From IMG/VR virus record IMGVR_UViG_2703718792_000016, positions 1 through 21,466 of that record: 21,466 nucleotides of DNA; one strand, 5' to 3'. A program made the translations under genes and the position numbers. Below are positions 1 to 13,485 of the stretch, piece after piece. A model generated the notes under the pieces. The model ran no database searches. It was not told the origin of the DNA and saw only the letters and a program-made list of their open reading frames with translations. The number at the start of each line of letters is the position of its first letter. The stretch's first letter is position 1. The stretch comes from a virus. Lineage: Duplodnaviria > Heunggongvirae > Uroviricota > Caudoviricetes.

Positions 1-567
1 TATCGCGTCCTCAACAATGAATTTTGTGATGCGGTGCCTGGTGCCTCCAGGTGACGTTAACCAGTTAACAATTAACGCCGGATACAGAGAATCCACCCAT
101 AACACTGTTTTTGGTTTTAACTGTTCCGCGTGCGCTGAGCCGCATTCACCGCATCACAAAATTCACTTTAAAAAGGGCGGCAGAGCAGTCACGGAGTAGA
201 ACTGATACCGCCAAAAGTCACCAGAAAATTGATAACAGAGGGCGTTGTAGCGGGGTTGTCACTTAAGTGTATGGTCAACCTGACAACCCGGTGTCCTCAA
301 CGGGGAAGGAATAACCCCGCCATACTTACCGCCGCGCCATTTCGCGGAGTGCCACAACCGGAAGCGCACGGTCGACGAAAATTTAACGACAGGCTATCTA
401 TGAACCAGCTACCTCGCCGTGCGCTTTCGCGTTATGGTCTGACTTTTCAGGGAAATATCCTTTCAGTAAACTGTCAGTGCCGGATGCTCACCCGTGTCCG
501 GCGCACGTACTCCACCTTACCCGTGGAGAACTCCTTAATTACCAACCTTAGCTTCGTTGGTTAGCTA

Positions 568-1392: not shown

Positions 1393-2031
1393 TTAAATAT
1401 CTTGTTGAATTTTAAAGCATACGCCCAATATGCAAGATAGATCATCCAGCATAATTGAAGGGTAGCGAGGATTCGTGGGGACTAAAAGAATATCCGGCCC
1501 TTCTATCTCCAGTTTACGAATGACAGGTGTTGTGGTCCCTTTGGGTAAGGCAAGGACAATATTTCCTGGTTGTACGGTTCGATCGGGATCAACAAAAACT
1601 GTTGAACCATTTGGAATGGAAACTCCCCCACCAGATGTTGACATACTGTCACTCTCTAGAACAACTGCAAAGGTATTGGCCGGGATTTCTCCGACAAGCT
1701 GCACACAAGAGGTTATTGAGGAATTTTTCATATAATCACTCCAGCTTGCTGCCTGCTGAAGTGATAGTAGCGGAACCGTTTTTATCGGCGGTAAAGATAG
1801 ATCAAGCGAATCACCTGTATTTAACTCTCCTCCATTAAGAAGCCAATTTTCGTTTACTTTCAATATCTTTGCCAGTGAACTTATGTAACGCGAGGACGGC
1901 GCTCCTCCACCGTTCATCCATTGACTTACGGAGCCTTTTGATGCGCCAGTGGCATTGACAAGGTCTTTGCCTTTCAGGTTTAGCGCATGCATACGTTGGG
2001 TTATGCGTTCAGATATTGTTTGCTTGCTCAT
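1393..2031 (-). CDS. cI: CI-like prophage repressor (N-terminal HTH, C-terminal S24 LexA-like autopeptidase domain)
   Basis: 212 aa; N-terminal HTH-like segment (...GASKGSVSQWMNGG...), C-terminal SDSM motif and downstream Lys typical of the S24 Ser-Lys dyad; divergent from a cro-like gene. Confidence 0.85.
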   Translation of the reverse strand: MSKQTISERITQRMHALNLKGKDLVNATGASKGSVSQWMNGGGAPSSRYISSLAKILKVNENWLLNGGELNTGDSLDLSLPPIKTVPLLSLQQAASWSDYMKNSSITSCVQLVGEIPANTFAVVLESDSMSTSGGGVSIPNGSTVFVDPDRTVQPGNIVLALPKGTTTPVIRKLEIEGPDILLVPTNPRYPSIMLDDLSCILGVCFKIQQDI

Positions 2032-4611: not shown

Positions 4612-5118
4612 TTATTTCTTTGCAGCCAGAATCAGGCCGTCAAGCCACTCCTGGTGACCATTGAGCATTGGGTTCGGACGAGTATTTGCCAGGTCTTTTG
4701 CTGGAACTCCGTTCTGCGTTTCCTGTGTCAGGATACGGAGTCTGTTACCCGAGAGTTCCTCCAGTAGCCACGCATGATGAACATCTAGGCGTTGTACAGT
4801 ATCTTTTTCACCGGACCATCCGTGCCATGCCAAACGAGCAGGTTTACCTTCAGTAGGTGGAATAAATTCCACGACCTGAGCTTCAACCGGAAATCCAAAT
4901 GTGCTGAAGTAAAAGCGCACGCCATTTTCCAGCTCCGGACCTTTATTGTTATAAAAGCGCACATCTGCTGAATTTTTATAGTATTCCGGCCATAGTAATG
5001 GCTGACTAAGGAGTGGCCAAACATCATTGATGTTCAGACCGGAGATGATCATTTCATTAGACACAAAGTTATCAGTAAATCCCGGAACAAAGCCTTCTGG
5101 CCAGTGAATAGCGTTCAT
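4612..5118 (-). CDS. SRPBCC (Bet v1-like / polyketide cyclase-like) superfamily protein, cargo gene
   Basis: 168 aa from the ATG at 5118 (GGAGG upstream); the track ORF start at 5130 is a TTG extension. Superfamily call from overall sequence character, not a search. Confidence 0.6.
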   Translation of the reverse strand: MNAIHWPEGFVPGFTDNFVSNEMIISGLNINDVWPLLSQPLLWPEYYKNSADVRFYNNKGPELENGVRFYFSTFGFPVEAQVVEFIPPTEGKPARLAWHGWSGEKDTVQRLDVHHAWLLEELSGNRLRILTQETQNGVPAKDLANTRPNPMLNGHQEWLDGLILAAKK

Positions 5119-5253
5119 AAATGCCTCCAATTGCGGTAGTTAATTGTACTGGGTTTGCTGCGTTACGACCGCAACACGATGGCAGTGATTATTAGCGCAA
5201 TGAAGTTATAAGGCGAATTATGATTACTTATAATCTTAATAAGATAAATTATA

Positions 5254-6162
5254 TCAGGAGCCAGTATCTTGGCTAACTTCTACGCATAAAGCCCGAATCC
5301 ACTGATGGCTAGGGTCACGATGAGTTCGTTCATGCCAGGCCATACTCTTGGTAAAGCCCGGAACTTTCAGGGGCAAAGGGAGTATGATTAGATCGTTGTT
5401 AGTCAGGACCATGCGGTGGGGGACAACAGCGATCATATCAGTCACTTGCAATATATCAGGAACTACTTGAAAACTATTAACTGACATGCCTACTCGTCGT
5501 GTCAGACTGAGCTTAGCCAGTGCTTCATCTGTAACACCGGAGAAGCTACCTTCTGAAGACACCAGAATATGTTCCTGTTTGCAAAATTGTTCGAGAGTCA
5601 TTTCTGAATTCGCTGACAACGGATGATTCCGTCGTGCTATGCAAACATAATCTTCTTCATAAAGTGCTCTGCCGTGCAGCTCTCCGGGAGTGGTTTGTGG
5701 TGTTACCAAAGCCAGATCAACTTCTCCCTGAGATAACTGCTGATATATTCGTTTATTGTCTACAGGCCGCACAGAGATTTTAATATTCGGTGCTCGATGT
5801 TTCAGCGCAGCCATCAATGGGACAACAACAGCCTTAACTGCATAGTCCGTTGCGACAATGGTATAAGTTAGTTCTGCCGTCATGGGGTCAAATTTACTTG
5901 GTTTCAGCAGAATCGTGATATCGGTGAGAATTTGTTTTACCGGCATAGCAAGTTCTTTAGCACGGAGTGTGGGAACCATACCGTGACTGGTGCGAACAAA
6001 GAGAGGATCGCAAAAATAATCACGTAATCGAATAAGCATGCCACTGACAGCGGGCTGCGTCAGGGAAAGTCGCTGCGCAGCCCGAGTCACGCTTCCCTCA
6101 TCCATTAACGCATCAAAGGTCTTAAGTAAGTTAAGGTCGAGGGTTTTGATATCATTTTTCAT
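5254..6162 (-). CDS. LysR-family transcriptional regulator
   Basis: 302 aa; N-terminal HTH signature (...LNLLKTFDALMDEGSVTRAAQRLSLTQPAVSGMLIRLRD...) and a C-terminal substrate-binding-type domain of typical length. Confidence 0.9.
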   Translation of the reverse strand: MKNDIKTLDLNLLKTFDALMDEGSVTRAAQRLSLTQPAVSGMLIRLRDYFCDPLFVRTSHGMVPTLRAKELAMPVKQILTDITILLKPSKFDPMTAELTYTIVATDYAVKAVVVPLMAALKHRAPNIKISVRPVDNKRIYQQLSQGEVDLALVTPQTTPGELHGRALYEEDYVCIARRNHPLSANSEMTLEQFCKQEHILVSSEGSFSGVTDEALAKLSLTRRVGMSVNSFQVVPDILQVTDMIAVVPHRMVLTNNDLIILPLPLKVPGFTKSMAWHERTHRDPSHQWIRALCVEVSQDTGS

Positions 6163-6583: not shown

Positions 6584-6737
6584 TTTCATATTGGCGAGGT
6601 AACGGTAGTTAAGTAGAATTGCTGCGGGTGCTTGAGGCTATCTGCCTCGGGCATGAACACCAACGGCAGATAGAGAAAAGCCCCAGTTAACATTACGCGT
6701 CCTGCAAGACGTTTAACATTAATCTGAGGCCATATCT

Positions 6738-6797
6738 ATGCGACACATAGAGATTAGCCTCTTACGGACCGAAAGGTCAAGGAGAAGCAGGCTATGA
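6738..6797 (+). CDS. mok-like leader ORF overlapping the hok start
   Basis: 19-codon ORF whose stop overlaps the hok ATG (ATGA), the kind of coupling seen in hok/mok loci. Speculative. Confidence 0.25.
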   Translation: MRHIEISLLRTERSRRSRL

Positions 6798-6987: not shown

Positions 6988-7395
6988 GTGTCAGGCATCC
7001 TCAACGCACCCGCACGTAACCCGCTTCGGCGGGTTTTGTTTTTTCCTGGCATTCTGGTTTACAATTCGCACGCCAGCCTGAACAACTGGCACCTGCTGCG
7101 CCAGCAGAGACAACCGATGGCGCGCGATACCAAATTACACAATTCTAATGATTCTGCCGTCTTTGCCAGTAGGTGCGGACGGCGTTTTCACGCATTCAAA
7201 TCAGACTGGTTCCAGCATCCTCCATGCACTGAAGAGCAGGCGGAATGGATAATTCAGTGTTACCGCAGGCGCGGATACGAGGTTAAGAAAGCTCTTAGCC
7301 TCGACTACCGTCACTGGATAATCTCAGTCAGACTCCCTTACTCCGAACGCCCACCGCGTTCATCCCGCACATTCCAGCAACGCATCTGGAGGTAA
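6988..7395 (+). CDS. hypothetical protein in the nin-like region (possibly Rem-like); start uncertain (GTG 6988 or ATG 7117)
   Basis: ORF ends 1 nt before the DUF968 gene start; preceded by a stem-loop (6959-6976) after hok. A 92-aa product from 7117 is equally possible. Confidence 0.45.
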   Translation: MSGILNAPARNPLRRVLFFPGILVYNSHASLNNWHLLRQQRQPMARDTKLHNSNDSAVFASRCGRRFHAFKSDWFQHPPCTEEQAEWIIQCYRRRGYEVKKALSLDYRHWIISVRLPYSERPPRSSRTFQQRIWR

Positions 7396-8452: not shown

Positions 8453-8818
8453 ATGACTGAGCGCATAGAATTTGTTTTGCCTTACCCGCCGTCGGTGAAC
8501 ACCTACTGGCGCCGTCGTGGTGGCGTATATTTTGTATCAAAAGCCGGTGAGCGTTATCGCCGGGATGTGGCGCTTATTGTTCGCCAGCAGCGACTGAAAT
8601 TAAATCTGTCCGGTAGATTGGCAATCAGGATTATTGCAGAGCCACCGGATAAGCGCCGCCGCGACCTGGACAATATCCTGAAGGCACCACTGGATGCACT
8701 GACACATGCAGGACTGCTTATCGACGATGAGCAGTTTGATGAAATCAATATTGTGCGCGGTCAGCTCGTTCCTGGTGGGCGGCTGGGGATAAAAATCACA
8801 GAACTGGAGTGCGCATGA
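8453..8818 (+). CDS. rusA: RusA-family Holliday junction resolvase
   Basis: 121 aa with the RusA core ...PDKRRRDLDNILKAPLDALTHAGLLIDDEQ...; start directly follows the upstream stop. Confidence 0.9.
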   Translation: MTERIEFVLPYPPSVNTYWRRRGGVYFVSKAGERYRRDVALIVRQQRLKLNLSGRLAIRIIAEPPDKRRRDLDNILKAPLDALTHAGLLIDDEQFDEINIVRGQLVPGGRLGIKITELECA

Positions 8819-9504
8819 ATAACCAGTATTTACAGTTTGTGCGTGAGCAGCTCATTATCGCCACCGCTGATTTGAGTGGGGCAACAAAAGGTCAGCTTGA
8901 AGCCTGGCAGGAGAATGCCATGTTCGATACAGGGCGTTACAGGCGAAAAAAAATCCGGTACCGCGATGAAGTGACTGGAAAAATGATAACGCGGAATAAT
9001 CAACCAATCCCGGGAAAGCAATCGCTGGCGAAGGGGACGTCAATTCCTCTGGTCAGTCCGGTTGAGTTTTCGACATCATCGTGGCGGCGGGCTGTTCTGT
9101 CTCTTGAAGAACATCATAAAGCCTGGTTGTTGTGGTGTTACAGCGGGAGTATTTGTTGGGAATATCAGATCGCGATAACACAGTGGGCGTGGAATGAATT
9201 TAATACTCAATCCGGTACCAGAAAAATTGCAGGGAAAACGCAGGAACGCCTGAAAAAATTAATCTGGCTGACGGCGCAGGCAGTAAAAGCAGAACTTTTG
9301 GGTGGGGAAGGTTATGAATACCAGGATCTGGCATTACTGGCGGGAGTGACAACTAAAAACTGGTCCAAAACATTTACTCGTCACTGGGTTGCAATGAAAC
9401 ACATTTTTCACCGACTGGATAGTGAGGCTTTATTGTTTGTAATGAGAACACGTTCAAAACAAAAGGCGGCATTTTCAAAGCAAAGTGTTGCAAAAGTAGA
9501 TTGA
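8815..9504 (+). CDS. putative late-gene antiterminator (Q-like)
   Basis: 229 aa; ATG overlaps the rusA stop; located after the nin-like genes and before a promoter/terminator module, tRNAs and the lysis cassette. Assignment rests on position, not recognised motifs. Confidence 0.55.
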   Translation: MNNQYLQFVREQLIIATADLSGATKGQLEAWQENAMFDTGRYRRKKIRYRDEVTGKMITRNNQPIPGKQSLAKGTSIPLVSPVEFSTSSWRRAVLSLEEHHKAWLLWCYSGSICWEYQIAITQWAWNEFNTQSGTRKIAGKTQERLKKLIWLTAQAVKAELLGGEGYEYQDLALLAGVTTKNWSKTFTRHWVAMKHIFHRLDSEALLFVMRTRSKQKAAFSKQSVAKVD

Positions 9505-9516
9505 AAGGCATATATT
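9488..9516 (+). promoter_or_regulatory. candidate late promoter (pR'-like): -35 TTGCAA, 17-bp spacer, -10 TATATT
   Basis: Hexamers at 9488-9493 and 9511-9516, overlapping the 3' end of the Q-like gene, about 55 nt upstream of an intrinsic terminator. Confidence 0.35.
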
Positions 9517-9570
9517 TCATGCAAATCTGATATTTTGCCGATTTTGTACGTGATGGCAAAAGCAAACAAA

Positions 9571-9594
9571 ACCCGCCCACAAGCGGGTTTTTTG
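9571..9594 (+). terminator. intrinsic terminator (tR'-like) downstream of the Q-like gene
   Basis: ACCCGC / GCGGGT stem with CCACAA loop followed by a run of six T. Confidence 0.6.
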
Positions 9595-9675
9595 TGCCAC
9601 TTATCTCGGATAGACATGGTGAATGCGCTGGTGGAGGAAGTAAGGGTAATTTTTAATCAGGTGATTCTTGAATGC

Positions 9676-9704
9676 TTGCAACATTGATTTCGTAACGTTA
9701 TTAT
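9676..9704 (+). promoter_or_regulatory. candidate sigma70 promoter for the tRNA array: -35 TTGCAA, 17-bp spacer, -10 TATTAT
   Basis: Hexamers at 9676-9681 and 9699-9704, ending about 10 nt before the first tRNA. Confidence 0.4.
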
Positions 9705-9713
9705 CCTGCGCCC

Positions 9714-9789
9714 GGCCCTTTAGCTCAGTGGTGAGAGCGAGCGACTCATAATCGCCAGGTCGCTGGTTCAAATCCAGCAAGGGCCACCA
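9714..9789 (+). tRNA. tRNA with CAT anticodon, most similar to tRNA-Ile2 (lysidine, ileX/ileZ-like); Met not excluded
   Basis: 76 nt; cloverleaf with 7-bp acceptor stem GGCCCTT/AAGGGCC, anticodon loop CTCATAA, T-loop TTCAAAT, CCA encoded; close to my recollection of E. coli ileX. Confidence 0.85.
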
Positions 9790-9790
9790 A

Positions 9791-9867
9791 CCGCCACTAG
9801 CTCATCAGGAAAGAGCGTCAACCCTTTAAGTTGAGTGTGCGAGGTTCGAGTCCCCGGTGGCGGTCCA
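9791..9867 (+). tRNA. tRNA-like gene with non-canonical anticodon loop CCTTTAA (formal anticodon TTT, Lys); isotype uncertain
   Basis: 77 nt; acceptor stem CCGCCAC/GTGGCGG, T-loop TTCGAGT, CCA encoded, but C at position 33 and an A-C mismatch in the T-stem. Confidence 0.55.
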
Positions 9868-9869
9868 GT

Positions 9870-9945
<76 letters not shown>

Positions 9946-9948
9946 TAT

Positions 9949-10023
<75 letters not shown>

Positions 10024-10186
10024 GTATTTATCTGCATATTTCCTTTTGAATCCCGTTTTGTTAGAGGTATTGGGCTGTTGACGGGGCTGATATCCACTCT
10101 CCACCTTTCAGGGAGATAGGATTTAAGGAGCCAACCGGTTAGAGTCTGCTTTGTTCCTAACCAGTTGGTTATGTTATTTGAGATGG

Positions 10187-10750
10187 TTAGTTTTTATTCG
10201 CCGTCCATTTACCACAAATTGGTCTGGAGAAGATTGCCAGAATGGCAATAAAGGATATTTCAATTGAAACAGACCAGCATATATGTCCAATCAGTTCGCT
10301 CCAGAATTCATAGCCGTTTAGATTCCATAGCCATCCTCTTTCATGGCCGGGAAGATACGCGGGAAATCTGAAGCCCAGCGCGGGTATTAAAATACCATGC
10401 ATGACTAATGTAATAAGAATTCCATATACAGCCCCATACCACATGCGGACTCGTGGAATAAAAACAGACAGGTATATGTATACAAAGGCAAAAATGAAAC
10501 TAAAAAGCCAATGGTAGAGCATAACAGCTCCGGGAATTGTTACTCCTTGGTAAATGTAATCCAGCGAGTGTGAATTTATTCCCAGAAAACCCAACCAGGC
10601 GTCGATATTCATTGCTGGTGGAGAAATTTCTCCGGCCATTCTTGGGGGCATGTTAGCTTCAGTTCCTGATTTCACCAGAGAGCTGATCGCGCCACCGACC
10701 AGTGTTGCCCAAAGTATGATTTTTAGATTTACGCTATTCCATTTACACAT
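10187..10750 (-). CDS. DUF1440-family inner membrane protein (YagU-like), moron between tRNAs and lysis genes
   Basis: 187 aa from the ATG at 10750 (GAGG upstream); several hydrophobic helices; C-terminal ...SELIGHICWSVSIEI... resembles the YagU signature. The 93-codon upstream extension in the track ORF is low-complexity and probably untranslated. Confidence 0.7.
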   Translation of the reverse strand: MCKWNSVNLKIILWATLVGGAISSLVKSGTEANMPPRMAGEISPPAMNIDAWLGFLGINSHSLDYIYQGVTIPGAVMLYHWLFSFIFAFVYIYLSVFIPRVRMWYGAVYGILITLVMHGILIPALGFRFPAYLPGHERGWLWNLNGYEFWSELIGHICWSVSIEISFIAILAIFSRPICGKWTANKN

Positions 10751-11043
10751 AAACAACCTCTTGTTTGTTGGGTTGGGGTTATCATACATGACTGCTTGTT
10801 GCGATTTTGCATCGTAATGTTTCTGTTTGTTGTCTTTTGTGTTGTTTGTCTCTTTAGTGTTCTGTGTGTGACTATGTACACTCTGTATAGTGGGGGCTCC
10901 CGTTGGTGCAGAGAATAACGAAATCTGAAAATAACCGTTTTCAGTTGTGGCGCCCGCAACAAAAGCGCATGCTGACTGTGCGAAGATAATCCCGCTGTGA
11001 CGAGTAATCTCGAACGTCATTGTTTTCATTTATGCCAGTTACC

Positions 11044-11070
11044 CAAAGCTGGCTTTTTTTGAGGTCTGCT
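11044..11070 (+). terminator. intrinsic terminator-like hairpin with T7 run (plus orientation)
   Basis: GCCAG / CTGGC stem followed by TTTTTTT. Confidence 0.5.
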
Positions 11071-11073
11071 CCG

Positions 11074-11097
11074 GCAGGCTTTTTTTATTCCGGCATA
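11074..11097 (+). terminator. intrinsic terminator-like hairpin with T-run (plus orientation)
   Basis: GTCTGC / GCAGGC stem with TCCG tetraloop followed by seven T. Confidence 0.5.
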
Positions 11098-11301
11098 TAT
11101 AACTATGGAGTATTGCGACAACCTGATAAAAGTCTGCATATCGCGATCCAACGGTAGAAGCGATAAACGAGCTGAGCGATATGTTTCCAGAGGAGAAGAG
11201 GTTGAGCGATACGAAGAAACAGCTAAGTATATTAAGAGAATGTTAATGTGCTTCATTGCTGATCAGAAGCTATCGGGATAATCATCAGTTTTTTGTATTG
11301 A

Positions 11302-11324
11302 GGCTCGCTACGGCGGGCCTTTTT
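11302..11324 (+). terminator. intrinsic terminator-like hairpin with T-run (plus orientation)
   Basis: GGCTCGC / GCGGGCC stem (one G-U pair), TACG loop, then TTTTT. Confidence 0.5.
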
Positions 11325-11465
11325 CACATCCGCGTCACGCCCGGCGCACATCACATCAGATAACGCTATACAAAAGGCATCTTCGGGTGCCTTTGATGGG
11401 GGGGCGGGCCGCTGGTGGCTTTTTTTGTTTCCATTACACAGCACCCGCATCTGCGAGGTGGGGTT

Positions 11466-11681
11466 ATGAAATCCATGGATAAGTTAACAACGGGTGTCGC
11501 CTATGGCACCTCAGCAGGTAGTGCCGGGTACTGGTTTTTACAGTTGCTCGATAAAGTCACGCCCTCACAGTGGGCGGCAATAGGTGTGCTGGGTAGTCTG
11601 GTATTTGGCTTGCTGACGTATCTGACAAACCTTTATTTCAAGATTAAAGAAGATAAGCGTAAGGCTGCGAGAGGTGAATAA
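11466..11681 (+). CDS. S: class II holin (phage 21 S21-type pinholin) with dual-start motif MKSM
   Basis: 71 aa [71 protein letters not shown], close to my recollection of S21; GAGGTGG Shine-Dalgarno; two Met codons three codons apart. Confidence 0.85.
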
Positions 11682-12178
11682 TGTCGCCATCATTACGCAA
11701 GGCTATTGCTGCTGCTATTGGTGGTGGGGCTGTTGCCATAGCGTCTGTGCTCATCACTGGTCCGAGTGGTGACGATGGCCTGGAAGGTGTCAGCTACATA
11801 CCATACAAAGATATCGTTGGCGTATGGACTGTATGTCACGGACACACCGGAAAAGACATCATGCTCGGTAAAACGTATACCGAAGCAGAATGCAAAGCCC
11901 TCCTGAATAAAGACCTTGCCACGGTCGCCAGACAAATTAACCCGTACATAAAAGTCGATATACCGGAAACAACGCGCGGCGCTCTTTACTCGTTCGTTTA
12001 CAACGTGGGCGCTGGCAATTTCAGAACATCGACGCTTCTTCGCAAAATAAACCAGGGCGATATCAAAGGCGCATGTGATCAGCTACGGCGCTGGACATAC
12101 GCTGGCGGTAAGCAATGGAAAGGGCTGATGACTCGCCGTGAGATTGAGCGTGAAGTCTGTTTGTGGGGGCAGAAATGA
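11681..12178 (+). CDS. R: SAR endolysin (R21-type lysozyme with N-terminal signal-arrest-release domain)
   Basis: 165 aa; Gly/Ala-rich weakly hydrophobic N-terminus ([20 protein letters not shown]) followed by a LEG...YxD...T lysozyme catalytic region; start overlaps the holin stop. Confidence 0.85.
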
Positions 12179-12642
12179 GCAGAGTAACCGCGATTATCTC
12201 CGCTCTGGTTATCTGCATCATCGTCTGCCTGTCATGGACTGTTAATCATTACCGTGATAACGCCATCGCCTACAAAGAACAGCGTGATAAAAAAGTCAGT
12301 GAGCTGGAGCAGGCGATCGCCACCATCGCTGACATGCAGCAGCGTCAGCGTGATGTTGCTGTGCTCGATGCAAAGTACTCGAGAGAATTAGCCAATGCGA
12401 AAGCTGAAAATGAAACTCTGCGCGCTGATGTTGCCGCTGGTCGTAAGCGCCTGCGGGTCAATGCCAGTTGCTCCGCAGCCGTGCGTGAAGCCACCGGACC
12501 CACCCGCGTGGATAATGCAACCAGCCCCCGACTGGCAGACACCGCTGAACGGGATTATTTCACCCTCAGAGAACGGCTGATGACAATGCAAAAGCAACTG
12601 GAAGGGGCACAGGAATATATCCGTACCCAGTGTATACCGTGA
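12175..12642 (+). CDS. Rz: Rz-like i-spanin (inner membrane spanin subunit)
   Basis: 155 aa from the ATG at 12175 overlapping the endolysin stop; N-terminal transmembrane helix then coiled-coil-like sequence; contains the embedded Rz1 frame. Confidence 0.8.
12395..12580 (+). CDS. Rz1: Rz1-like o-spanin lipoprotein embedded in the +1 frame of Rz
   Basis: 61 aa with signal peptide and lipobox (LVVSAC) followed by a Pro-rich mature region, entirely inside Rz. Confidence 0.65.
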
Positions 12643-13107: not shown

Positions 13108-13422
13108 ATGCTACATGATCACCAGGCTGAATGTCTGGAGAAAAAAGGACTGTACCGGAGAGCGGCTGCACGATGGGCAAAAGTGATGGTACAGCTAAGT
13201 GATGATCAGAAAAGAAAAATCGCGGCACAGAAACGAGCAGAGTGTTTGCGTAAGGCGCGCCGGACTTCGGTTGCACCGGTGAATCTGACAGAAATAAAGC
13301 AAGCGGTCAACAGACTACATTCTGAGTTGGGAATGGGATTTGAAGAGCGGCGGATATTCCGACGATATAAAGGGACAGGAGAACAGAATACGTCCGGAAA
13401 CGCGCGCTCAAAAAAATGCTAA
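13108..13422 (+). CDS. PerC-family transcriptional regulator (Pch-like), moron between lysis genes and cos
   Basis: 104 aa; N-terminal ...LEKKGLYRRAAARWAKVM... matches the PerC/Pch signature as I recall it; preceded by about 460 bp of A/T-rich non-coding DNA and followed by a terminator. Confidence 0.6.
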   Translation: MLHDHQAECLEKKGLYRRAAARWAKVMVQLSDDQKRKIAAQKRAECLRKARRTSVAPVNLTEIKQAVNRLHSELGMGFEERRIFRRYKGTGEQNTSGNARSKKC

Positions 13423-13463
13423 AAAATATTTGAGAAAGTTATTGCCTGTTACCATAAGAAAAA

Positions 13464-13485
13464 GCGACTTTAGTAGTCGCTTTTT
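13464..13485 (+). terminator. intrinsic terminator after the PerC-like gene (A-run before and T-run after, possibly bidirectional)
   Basis: GCGACT / AGTCGC stem with TTAGT loop, then TTTTT; preceded by AAAAA. Confidence 0.6.

Follow-up and report, generated by a model that had tools for sequence, protein, structure and literature searches.

The 21,466-nt sequence considered here (IMG/VR record IMGVR_UViG_2703718792_000016, positions 1 to 21,466, analysed at its full length and referred to below as the window) is a lambdoid Escherichia coli prophage, and its Q-to-S interval, the classical slot for cargo genes ('morons'), holds a gene for a YagU-like DUF1440 membrane protein that is encoded antisense to late transcription and separated from the holin gene by a stack of hairpin-plus-U-run elements. 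The arrangement was probably built by recombination, i.e. an 886-bp antisense DUF1440 cassette sits between the prophage transfer RNA (tRNA) array and a terminator stack that was not made for it. The locus is thus an ordinary one: the moron is of a kind typical of the lambdoid Q-S hot spot, its DUF1440 cargo is uncommon, and the terminators beside it are mostly generic prophage parts. Comparisons were made, using BLAST and MAFFT, with nine related prophage or phage loci (L001-L004, L014, L016-L018 and L084). The elements of the locus, with predicted folding energies, are as follows.

10026-10911: the moron proper, 886 bp, not found in related prophages that have these flanks; its left edge lies right after tRNA-Gly
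10131-10168: 13-bp hairpin between tRNA-Gly and the stop codon of the yagU-like gene, -18.2 kcal/mol, z -4.4 (minus strand), conserved in L002
10187-10750, minus strand: gene for the YagU-like DUF1440 membrane protein, 187 residues, ATG at 10750
10751-10911, minus strand: upstream region of this gene, CA-rich in the mRNA sense, with the Shine-Dalgarno sequence AAGAGG before the ATG, largely conserved with L002
10912-11033, plus strand: conserved non-coding backbone block before T1, 91% identical to L003
11034-11060, plus strand: T1 (GCCAG..CTGGC plus U7; stem 11034-11053, T7 11054-11060), -10.3 kcal/mol
11061-11086, plus strand: T2 (GAGGTCTGC-TCCG-GCAGGCTTT plus U run, U7; stem 11061-11082), -12.9 kcal/mol
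11090-11299, plus strand: 3' remnant (3' third) of a gene for a hypothetical protein of 173 residues, 80% DNA match to four genomes
11300-11324, plus strand: T3 (GAGGCTCGC-UACG-GCGGGCCUU plus U5; stem 11300-11321, run of five T 11320-11324), -16.7 kcal/mol, z -6.0
11373-11394: H4, a UUCG-loop hairpin (core 11376-11391), -12.5 kcal/mol on the plus and -7.4 kcal/mol on the minus strand
11406-11426, plus strand: T5, a degenerate holin-proximal terminator with a weak stem and U7 (T7 run 11420-11426), -5.5 kcal/mol, no better than shuffles

An earlier sequence-only reading of this stretch had assigned the cargo protein to DUF1440 and placed its gene opposite to late transcription, and both assignments are upheld. 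A hidden Markov model search matched the 187-residue protein to the full Pfam model PF07274 (DUF1440; positions 2-135 of 135) with an expectation value (E) of 8e-38 and 130 bits, against a cutoff of 34.7, and 'YagU family protein' is the RefSeq label in a 99% identical prophage; the gene lies on the minus strand, antisense to Q, four tRNAs, the S21-type holin, lysozyme and Rz, all of which are on the plus strand. In the AlphaFold2 model of the protein (mean predicted local distance difference test score 86, predicted template modelling score 0.80) long helices of 22-29 residues span positions 6-31, 74-97, 103-124 and 146-174, with a short one at 44-56, and the architecture is thereby predicted to be that of a multi-helix integral membrane protein; no relative of the predicted fold was found in the PDB. 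The copy in L002, which is 96% identical, differs by eight synonymous and two nonsynonymous codon changes, and the nearest relatives, stand-alone chromosomal homologues, share 63-81% identity, so that the cargo gene appears to be intact and under constraint. The reading frame stays open in the 5' direction to 11029, which would give a protein of 280 residues, and this start is used in database cluster P0001. The longer form was rejected: because the extension is not kept in L002, where the frame reaches back no further than MYDNPN (200 residues), and the homologues are all of 180-190 residues, the 187-residue form is taken as the gene, and the extension looks to be an artefact of stop-poor, CA-rich sequence.

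The limits of the cassette are set by its relatives. Phages PhiR47_1 and vB_EcoS-683R6 possess the tRNAs and diverge exactly past tRNA-Gly, which fixes the left edge, and homology to L003 starts again at 10912 on the right. The intervening sequence is missing in L003, L017 and L018, all of which have the left flank (the tRNA array), L003 having also the right flank from 10912. The G+C content of the cassette is 42.4%, against 50.7% for the window, and the cassette was found in three IMG/VR contigs and, among 5426 complete E. coli genomes, in only two. Presence or absence between the same flanks and a deviant base composition both mark this DNA as a moron, and it shares with other Q-S morons (stx in 933W and Sp5, and membrane-protein genes such as ECs_0816 in Sakai Sp3) the character of single-gene, deviant-GC DNA that is absent from close relatives and occupies the hot spot after Q, PR' and the tRNAs. 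Its orientation against late transcription is that of lambda bor, the classic antisense, lysogen-expressed cargo gene. A search for the donor of the cassette by way of its chromosomal homologues yielded none: those of Klebsiella, Cedecea and a metagenomic enterobacterial contig have unrelated flanks on both sides; chromosomal homologues of more than 81% identity were not found (none exceeded 78% among species-representative genomes), nor was a close plasmid copy of the gene.

The sequence upstream of the gene had been described as an unusually long T/G-rich leader extending over 10751-11040. Its cassette portion, 10751-10911, is indeed rich in T and G on the plus strand, where they make up 114 of its 161 bases, but 10912-11040 is backbone common to prophages that do not carry the gene. 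As the only conserved promoter-like element is the -10-like hexamer TATGAT at 10781-10786, shared with L002 and accompanied by a poor -35, the yagU-like gene may have a short 5' untranslated region (UTR), with the CA-rich stretch perhaps lying upstream of the promoter instead of forming a leader. The same stretch contains an imperfect 16-nt tandem duplication at 10820-10851 (TTTCTGTTTGTTGTCT / TTTGTGTTGTTTGTCT). It also contains, at 10837-10846, a 10-nt perfect complement to GcvB R1 (E 0.38), and was considered as a GcvB target or anti-GcvB mimic; this candidate was dropped, the RNAduplex energy against K-12 GcvB R1 being reached by 8% of shuffles and by 16% of other window segments. At the opposite end of the gene, 18 nt past its stop codon, the hairpin at 10131-10168 has on the plus strand a ragged tail rich in U (UUAUGUUAUUU) and on the minus strand no U-tract (CUCCUUAAAUCC), and is possibly a weak convergent terminator or a 3' stabiliser. 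The proposal that the moron is bracketed by terminators does not survive, in that the canonical terminators all lie on one side and the other has only this 13-bp hairpin, which lacks a clean U-tract.

Between the moron and the holin, T1, T2 and T3 each join a GC-rich stem-loop to at least five U, as intrinsic terminators do; T5 is marginal by this measure and H4, with UUU only, falls short of it. The at least three plus-strand terminators predicted before the holin are accordingly present, although two of the proposed positions (11044-11070 and 11074-11097) were displaced by some 10 nt. The core of the UUCG hairpin, 11376-11391, had been located exactly; read on the plus strand the hairpin is trailed by UUUG, and on the minus strand by UUUUGU. 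A T7 run does exist at 11420-11426, but the stem before it is as weak as those of shuffled sequences. A stricter scan gave nine plus-strand sites in 21.5 kb, four of them inside 370 nt where approximately 0.16 would be expected, and the clustering is therefore not attributable to chance. One further observation concerns H4, of which 11377-11390 is 79% complementary to 11441-11454, a segment that adjoins the Shine-Dalgarno sequence in the holin 5' UTR; it is conceivable, from this complementarity, that alternative pairing between the two might affect the choice of holin translation start.

Comparison with the nine loci resolves the region from tRNA array to holin into five pieces, and supplies separate sources for the members of the stack. 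The backbone block, taken to 11089, ends in T1 and T2, and in L003 and its relatives it stands directly after the tRNAs; within it, only one internal hairpin (hairpin 1), T1 and T2 are conserved, no covariation was detected, and across seven homologues the T1 stem is invariant and the loop variable. The next piece is a remnant, in which the open reading frame (ORF) 11105-11281 corresponds to residues 116-173 of the 173-residue protein (its product is 69% identical to the C-terminal end of WP_032185421), and T3 closes this truncated gene. Strain GE3 has the intact gene, with the same type of hairpin on both sides. T2 and T3 themselves form a 32-nt direct repeat of 75% identity, with stems (GGTCTGC/GCAGGCC and GGCTCGC/GCGGGCC) that are one fully compensatory pair apart, and are two alleles of one hairpin. 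A search for the T3-type hairpin together with the box TCCGCGYCACGCCCGGCGCA that comes after it found the pair in 997 of 5426 E. coli genomes, in up to seven copies each, and since the hairpin lies 12-15 nt past the last prophage tRNA at all four loci inspected (GE3, O157:H7 strain 9234, ATCC 43886 and 2013C-3250) it is identified as a prophage tRNA-array terminator. H4 and T5 constitute a conserved module immediately 5' of holin genes, including those of different holin families (L003, L004, L018 and E. coli 042); H4 is kept with a UGCG loop in L003, L004 and L018, and the T5 homologue, decayed in the window, is intact in L003 and L004 with the stem GGGCC/GGCCC (-10.8 kcal/mol in L003). Unrelated hairpin-plus-U-run elements are found 30-50 nt before the holin start in Sakai Sp3 (-15.7 kcal/mol), E2348/69 PP2 (-21.2 kcal/mol) and PhiR47_1 (-11.5 kcal/mol). 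Judged by these homologies, the stack is best described as a mosaic of backbone elements and the remnant of another cargo gene, and not as a structure associated with the yagU-like gene.

The consequences for transcription depend upon the late region in which the stack is embedded, the components of which are listed here.

8809-9504, plus strand: Q antiterminator (Pfam PF06323, Phage_antiter_Q, E 7e-91), labelled Q in the 99% identical prophage L001
9488-9516, plus strand: candidate late promoter PR' (TTGCAA-17-TATATT, 9/12 in a consensus scan), overlapping the end of Q and just 5' of tR'; its function is putative
9568-9593, plus strand: tR'-like terminator right after Q, a 9-bp GC stem plus U6, -16.8 kcal/mol, z -3.8
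9676-9704, plus strand: candidate tRNA-array promoter (TTGCAA-17-TATTAT, 9/12 in a consensus scan), 10 nt before the first tRNA; its function is likewise putative
9714-10023, plus strand: four tRNA genes (CAT, Lys-TTT, Thr-TGT and Gly-TCC), from ARAGORN, Rfam tRNA matches of 44-74 bits and the RefSeq annotation of L001
11466-11681, plus strand: S21-type holin (Pfam PF04971, E 3.8e-35) with a dual start, ATG 11466 and ATG 11475, as read from the sequence
11466-12642, plus strand: lysis genes, i.e. S21-type holin, lysozyme and Rz

Q, the PR'-like site and tR', followed on the same strand by holin, lysozyme, Rz and terminase, give the layout of a Q-dependent late operon. With lambda Q antitermination the window shares a Q-family protein, a promoter-like site and strong terminator after Q, and late genes that follow on the same strand. 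Lambda itself has tR' only between Q and holin, whereas here several extra terminators, derived from the tRNA array and from cargo cassettes, intervene between tR' and the holin. We envisage that the low-GC cassette (10026-10911) was inserted straight after the prophage tRNA array, and that T1 and T2 end a backbone block which in cassette-free relatives adjoins the tRNAs; T3 would be a second copy of the tRNA-array terminator family that arrived with another, now truncated, cargo gene, and T5 a decayed copy of the holin-proximal terminator-like hairpin. In the lysogen, unmodified polymerase starting from tRNA or cargo promoters would be halted at T1, T2 and T3, and at T5 where it is intact, and the holin and endolysin would stay silent owing to those stops. 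Because the cassette sits between the tRNAs and their terminators, any tRNA-operon read-through beyond the 10131-10168 hairpin would run antisense over the yagU-like gene up to T1/T2. Upon induction, Q-modified polymerase from PR' would pass tR' and T1-T5 and switch on the lysis and morphogenesis genes, and this convergent late transcription would collide with, or shut off, the antisense cargo gene.

The sequence-only reading had given the stack a purpose, namely to make lysis strictly dependent upon Q and to insulate this moron, and a purpose-built stack of this kind, maintained by selection, has points in its favour. Four to five plus-strand terminator-like sites between moron and holin are far more than chance would provide, both a Q gene and tR' are present, and redundancy of terminators is plausible, holin leakage being lethal. 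Strict Q-dependence fits these elements, the PR'-like site and lambdoid biology in general, but tR' alone already imposes it. The claim of insulation fails, since T1-T5 face the late direction, the wrong way for a minus-strand gene, and so cannot stop the yagU-like transcript; they can protect only the lysis genes, and only from plus-strand read-through. In addition, each element of the stack has a separate origin and is common to moron-free prophages, and the decay of T5 in the window argues against selection for a maximal stack. We consequently rate selection for such a purpose below the small RNA explanation that follows.

That explanation, which we regard as the main alternative, though an unlikely one, holds that the hairpin-plus-U-run elements are chiefly the 3' ends of prophage small RNAs (sRNAs), similar to the Hfq-type sRNAs and anti-sRNAs AgvB, AsxR and EcOnc, or to PasA, PasC and PasD, of enterohaemorrhagic and enteropathogenic E. 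coli prophages; 10912-11060 or 10912-11086 would then be an unrecognised sRNA or the 3' trailer of the tRNA operon, and the minus strand of H4 would end a convergent RNA. The region downstream of a Q-antiterminated PR' tolerates morons and carries sRNA genes, and convergent Hfq-bound sRNA genes occupy the Q-S region of Sp3, Sp4, Sp5, Sp9, Sp10, Sp11, Sp15 and Sp17 (Tree et al. 2014, PMC4104026). The Pas sRNAs adjoin the holin/lysozyme operon, and the genomic niche and hairpin-plus-poly-U architecture seen here are shared with AgvB, AsxR, EcOnc03, EcOnc13/PasD and PasA/PasC. Further support comes from the block itself, which folds better than shuffles (z -3.1) and has a U-rich stretch just before T1 as well as U7 tails, as in Hfq-binding sRNAs, and from the invariant stem and variable loop of T1 and the U-rich tail of H4 on the minus strand. 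However, the block matches no described sRNA family by Rfam or by sequence: across 9400-11700 there was no Rfam match, at E up to 5, to AgvB (RF02702), AsxR (RF02703), Esr41 or STnc100, no similarity to the published sequences of AgvB, AsxR, EcOnc03, the EcOnc27 probe, PasA or PasD1/2, and no BLAST similarity to the Sakai Sp3 or E2348/69 PP2/PP5 loci, so that the known prophage sRNAs differ from this locus in both sequence and covariance model. Homologues do not keep the sequence that precedes the block, from which it follows that there is no conserved sRNA promoter, and the block interior is without conserved structure or covariation. T2 and T3, moreover, are accounted for by the place that they take at other loci, immediately past the tRNA array. 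In Sakai Sp3 and E2348/69 PP2 the prophage sRNAs coexist with a holin-proximal terminator.

A narrower proposal, to which we attach a rather low probability, is that the block together with T1 and T2 (10912-11086) is an unrecognised stable RNA, i.e. the 3' trailer or an Hfq-type sRNA of the prophage tRNA operon, with the yagU-like cassette wedged between it and the tRNAs. Were this so, read-through of the tRNA operon would yield an antisense transcript of approximately 900 nt over the cargo gene, and cargo expression and trailer RNA would both be coupled to the activity of the tRNA operon and shut off by Q-driven transcription. In a related reading, of likewise rather low probability, the T2/T3 hairpin and the TCCGCG box beside it, which some 1000 E. 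coli genomes have in up to seven copies each, could serve as a recombination boundary for the swapping of cargo cassettes at this site.

As to what the cargo protein does, the sole functional lead, and a weak one, is YagU (b0287) of E. coli K-12, a DUF1440 inner-membrane protein with which it shares the Pfam family, a similar length and the conserved motif VK.G.E...PPR near the N-terminus. The identity to K-12 YagU is nevertheless only 30%, with 37 gap positions in 173 aligned columns, too low and too gapped for the two to be called orthologues, and the phage protein lies in a separate, very conserved subfamily, of which the nearest members are from Enterobacter, Serratia, Erwinia, Photobacterium and Vibrio. 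This subfamily spans Gamma-, Beta- and Alphaproteobacteria (its hosts include also Klebsiella michiganensis, Bordetella, Mesorhizobium and others) as single genes with varied neighbours, such as MgtE/NikR genes, a fimbrial operon or a transposase. Its alignment contains some 60 invariant residues, many of them His, Glu or Arg, a pattern that suggests an enzyme or transporter in preference to a passive membrane protein; K27, E31, R37, E41, H61, D64, H80, R102, H118, R128, E148, E152, H156 and E164 are among these invariants. K-12 yagU is strongly induced by acid and has a reported contribution to acid resistance (PMC2270276). By a weak analogy with it, the cargo protein would most likely be a lysogenic-conversion factor acting upon envelope or acid-stress physiology.

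A function that benefits the phage instead, i.e. superinfection exclusion, defence or the timing of lysis at the inner membrane, we judge to be distinctly improbable. Many small inner-membrane proteins from prophage morons act in exclusion, the gene adjoins the lysis cassette, and the protein matches a PHROG of unknown function (E 4.6e-17), so that distant DUF1440 proteins do occur in phage genomes; no INPHARED phage record exceeds 34% identity to it. Against such a role, PADLOC returned no match to the protein, the antisense orientation speaks against participation in the lytic programme, and the closest relatives are single chromosomal genes in non-phage contexts which, together with the invariant residues, point to a conserved cellular function captured by a phage.

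A recombination-built locus with an antisense cargo gene remains the preferred reading, and certain findings weigh against it. The matches for PR' and for the tRNA-array promoter are consensus matches of a kind that the scan returned no more often than expected by chance. No sigma-70 match of at least 9/12 was found on the minus strand between 10751 and 11110, and there is no canonical minus-strand terminator 3' of the yagU-like gene, so that neither of two textbook features of a moron, its own promoter and its own terminator, was recognised; in this, and in its rare DUF1440 cargo, the locus differs from the other Q-S morons. The block carrying T1 and T2 is rare, being present in 13 of 5426 genomes and in no INPHARED phage record, and 'backbone' accordingly signifies no more than sequence shared with a few cassette-free relatives. 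Finally, the transfer of an acid-resistance role from K-12 YagU is weak, given an identity of just 30%.

The implications are in the first place for annotation: the 280-residue ORF called by some gene finders should read as a DUF1440 protein of 187 residues, ORF 11105-11281 is a gene remnant and ORF 11253-11450 probable noise, and the unlabelled hairpins belong to recognisable prophage modules. More generally, stacks of terminators before lysis genes can arise without design, through recurrent insertion of cargo, and recombination, at the terminator of the tRNA array. The DUF1440 subfamily, with its many invariant residues and no structural relative, may merit functional study, a question that is not specific to this phage.

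Elsewhere in the window, the hallmarks of a lambdoid prophage comprise Q, PR'/tR', tRNAs, S-R-Rz, hok/sok, DicF and a CI-like repressor; PerC and terminase genes come after the lysis cassette. E. coli 377323_2f (NZ_CP039404) carries a prophage that is 99% identical over the whole of the region described, and one IMG/VR contig is 100% identical over 8800-12200. The features to the left of Q are as follows.

175-226, minus strand: DicF antisense sRNA, a full-length Rfam match of 71.5 bits (gathering score 48)
1393-2031, minus strand: gene for a CI-like S24 repressor
6626-6796, plus strand: antitoxin RNA sok, part of a type I toxin-antitoxin locus of the hok/sok (hokD-like) kind, Rfam 101 bits
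Upstream of Q: DUF968 and RusA genes

DicF points to an immunity-proximal region of the Qin/Kim type at the window's left end, and a strong plus-strand terminator follows sok at about 7018-7044. For the short transcript region from PR' to tR' (9520-9593), two prophage sRNAs of Salmonella came up as weak, sub-threshold Rfam matches, IsrK (22.7 bits, E 0.039) and IsrJ (24.5 bits, E 0.1); this may reflect a shared PR'-leader architecture. The first tRNA (9714-9789, anticodon CAT) was called Met by ARAGORN, and the identical gene is tRNA-Ile in RefSeq, of the lysidine-modified ileX/ileZ type found in Stx phages. Just past the lysis cassette, a homologue of PerC-family activators (13108-13422, plus strand; Pfam E 6.8e-42) is followed by a bidirectional hairpin terminator at 13463-13485, which reads AGCGACT..AGTCGCTTTTT on either strand. 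A second antisense cargo pair occupies the early-right region (4612-6162, minus strand) and consists of a LysR-family regulator (5254-6162) and an ORF of 172 residues (4612-5130) that has no Pfam match; at the corresponding place prophage L002 carries a 'polyketide cyclase' gene and a LysR gene.

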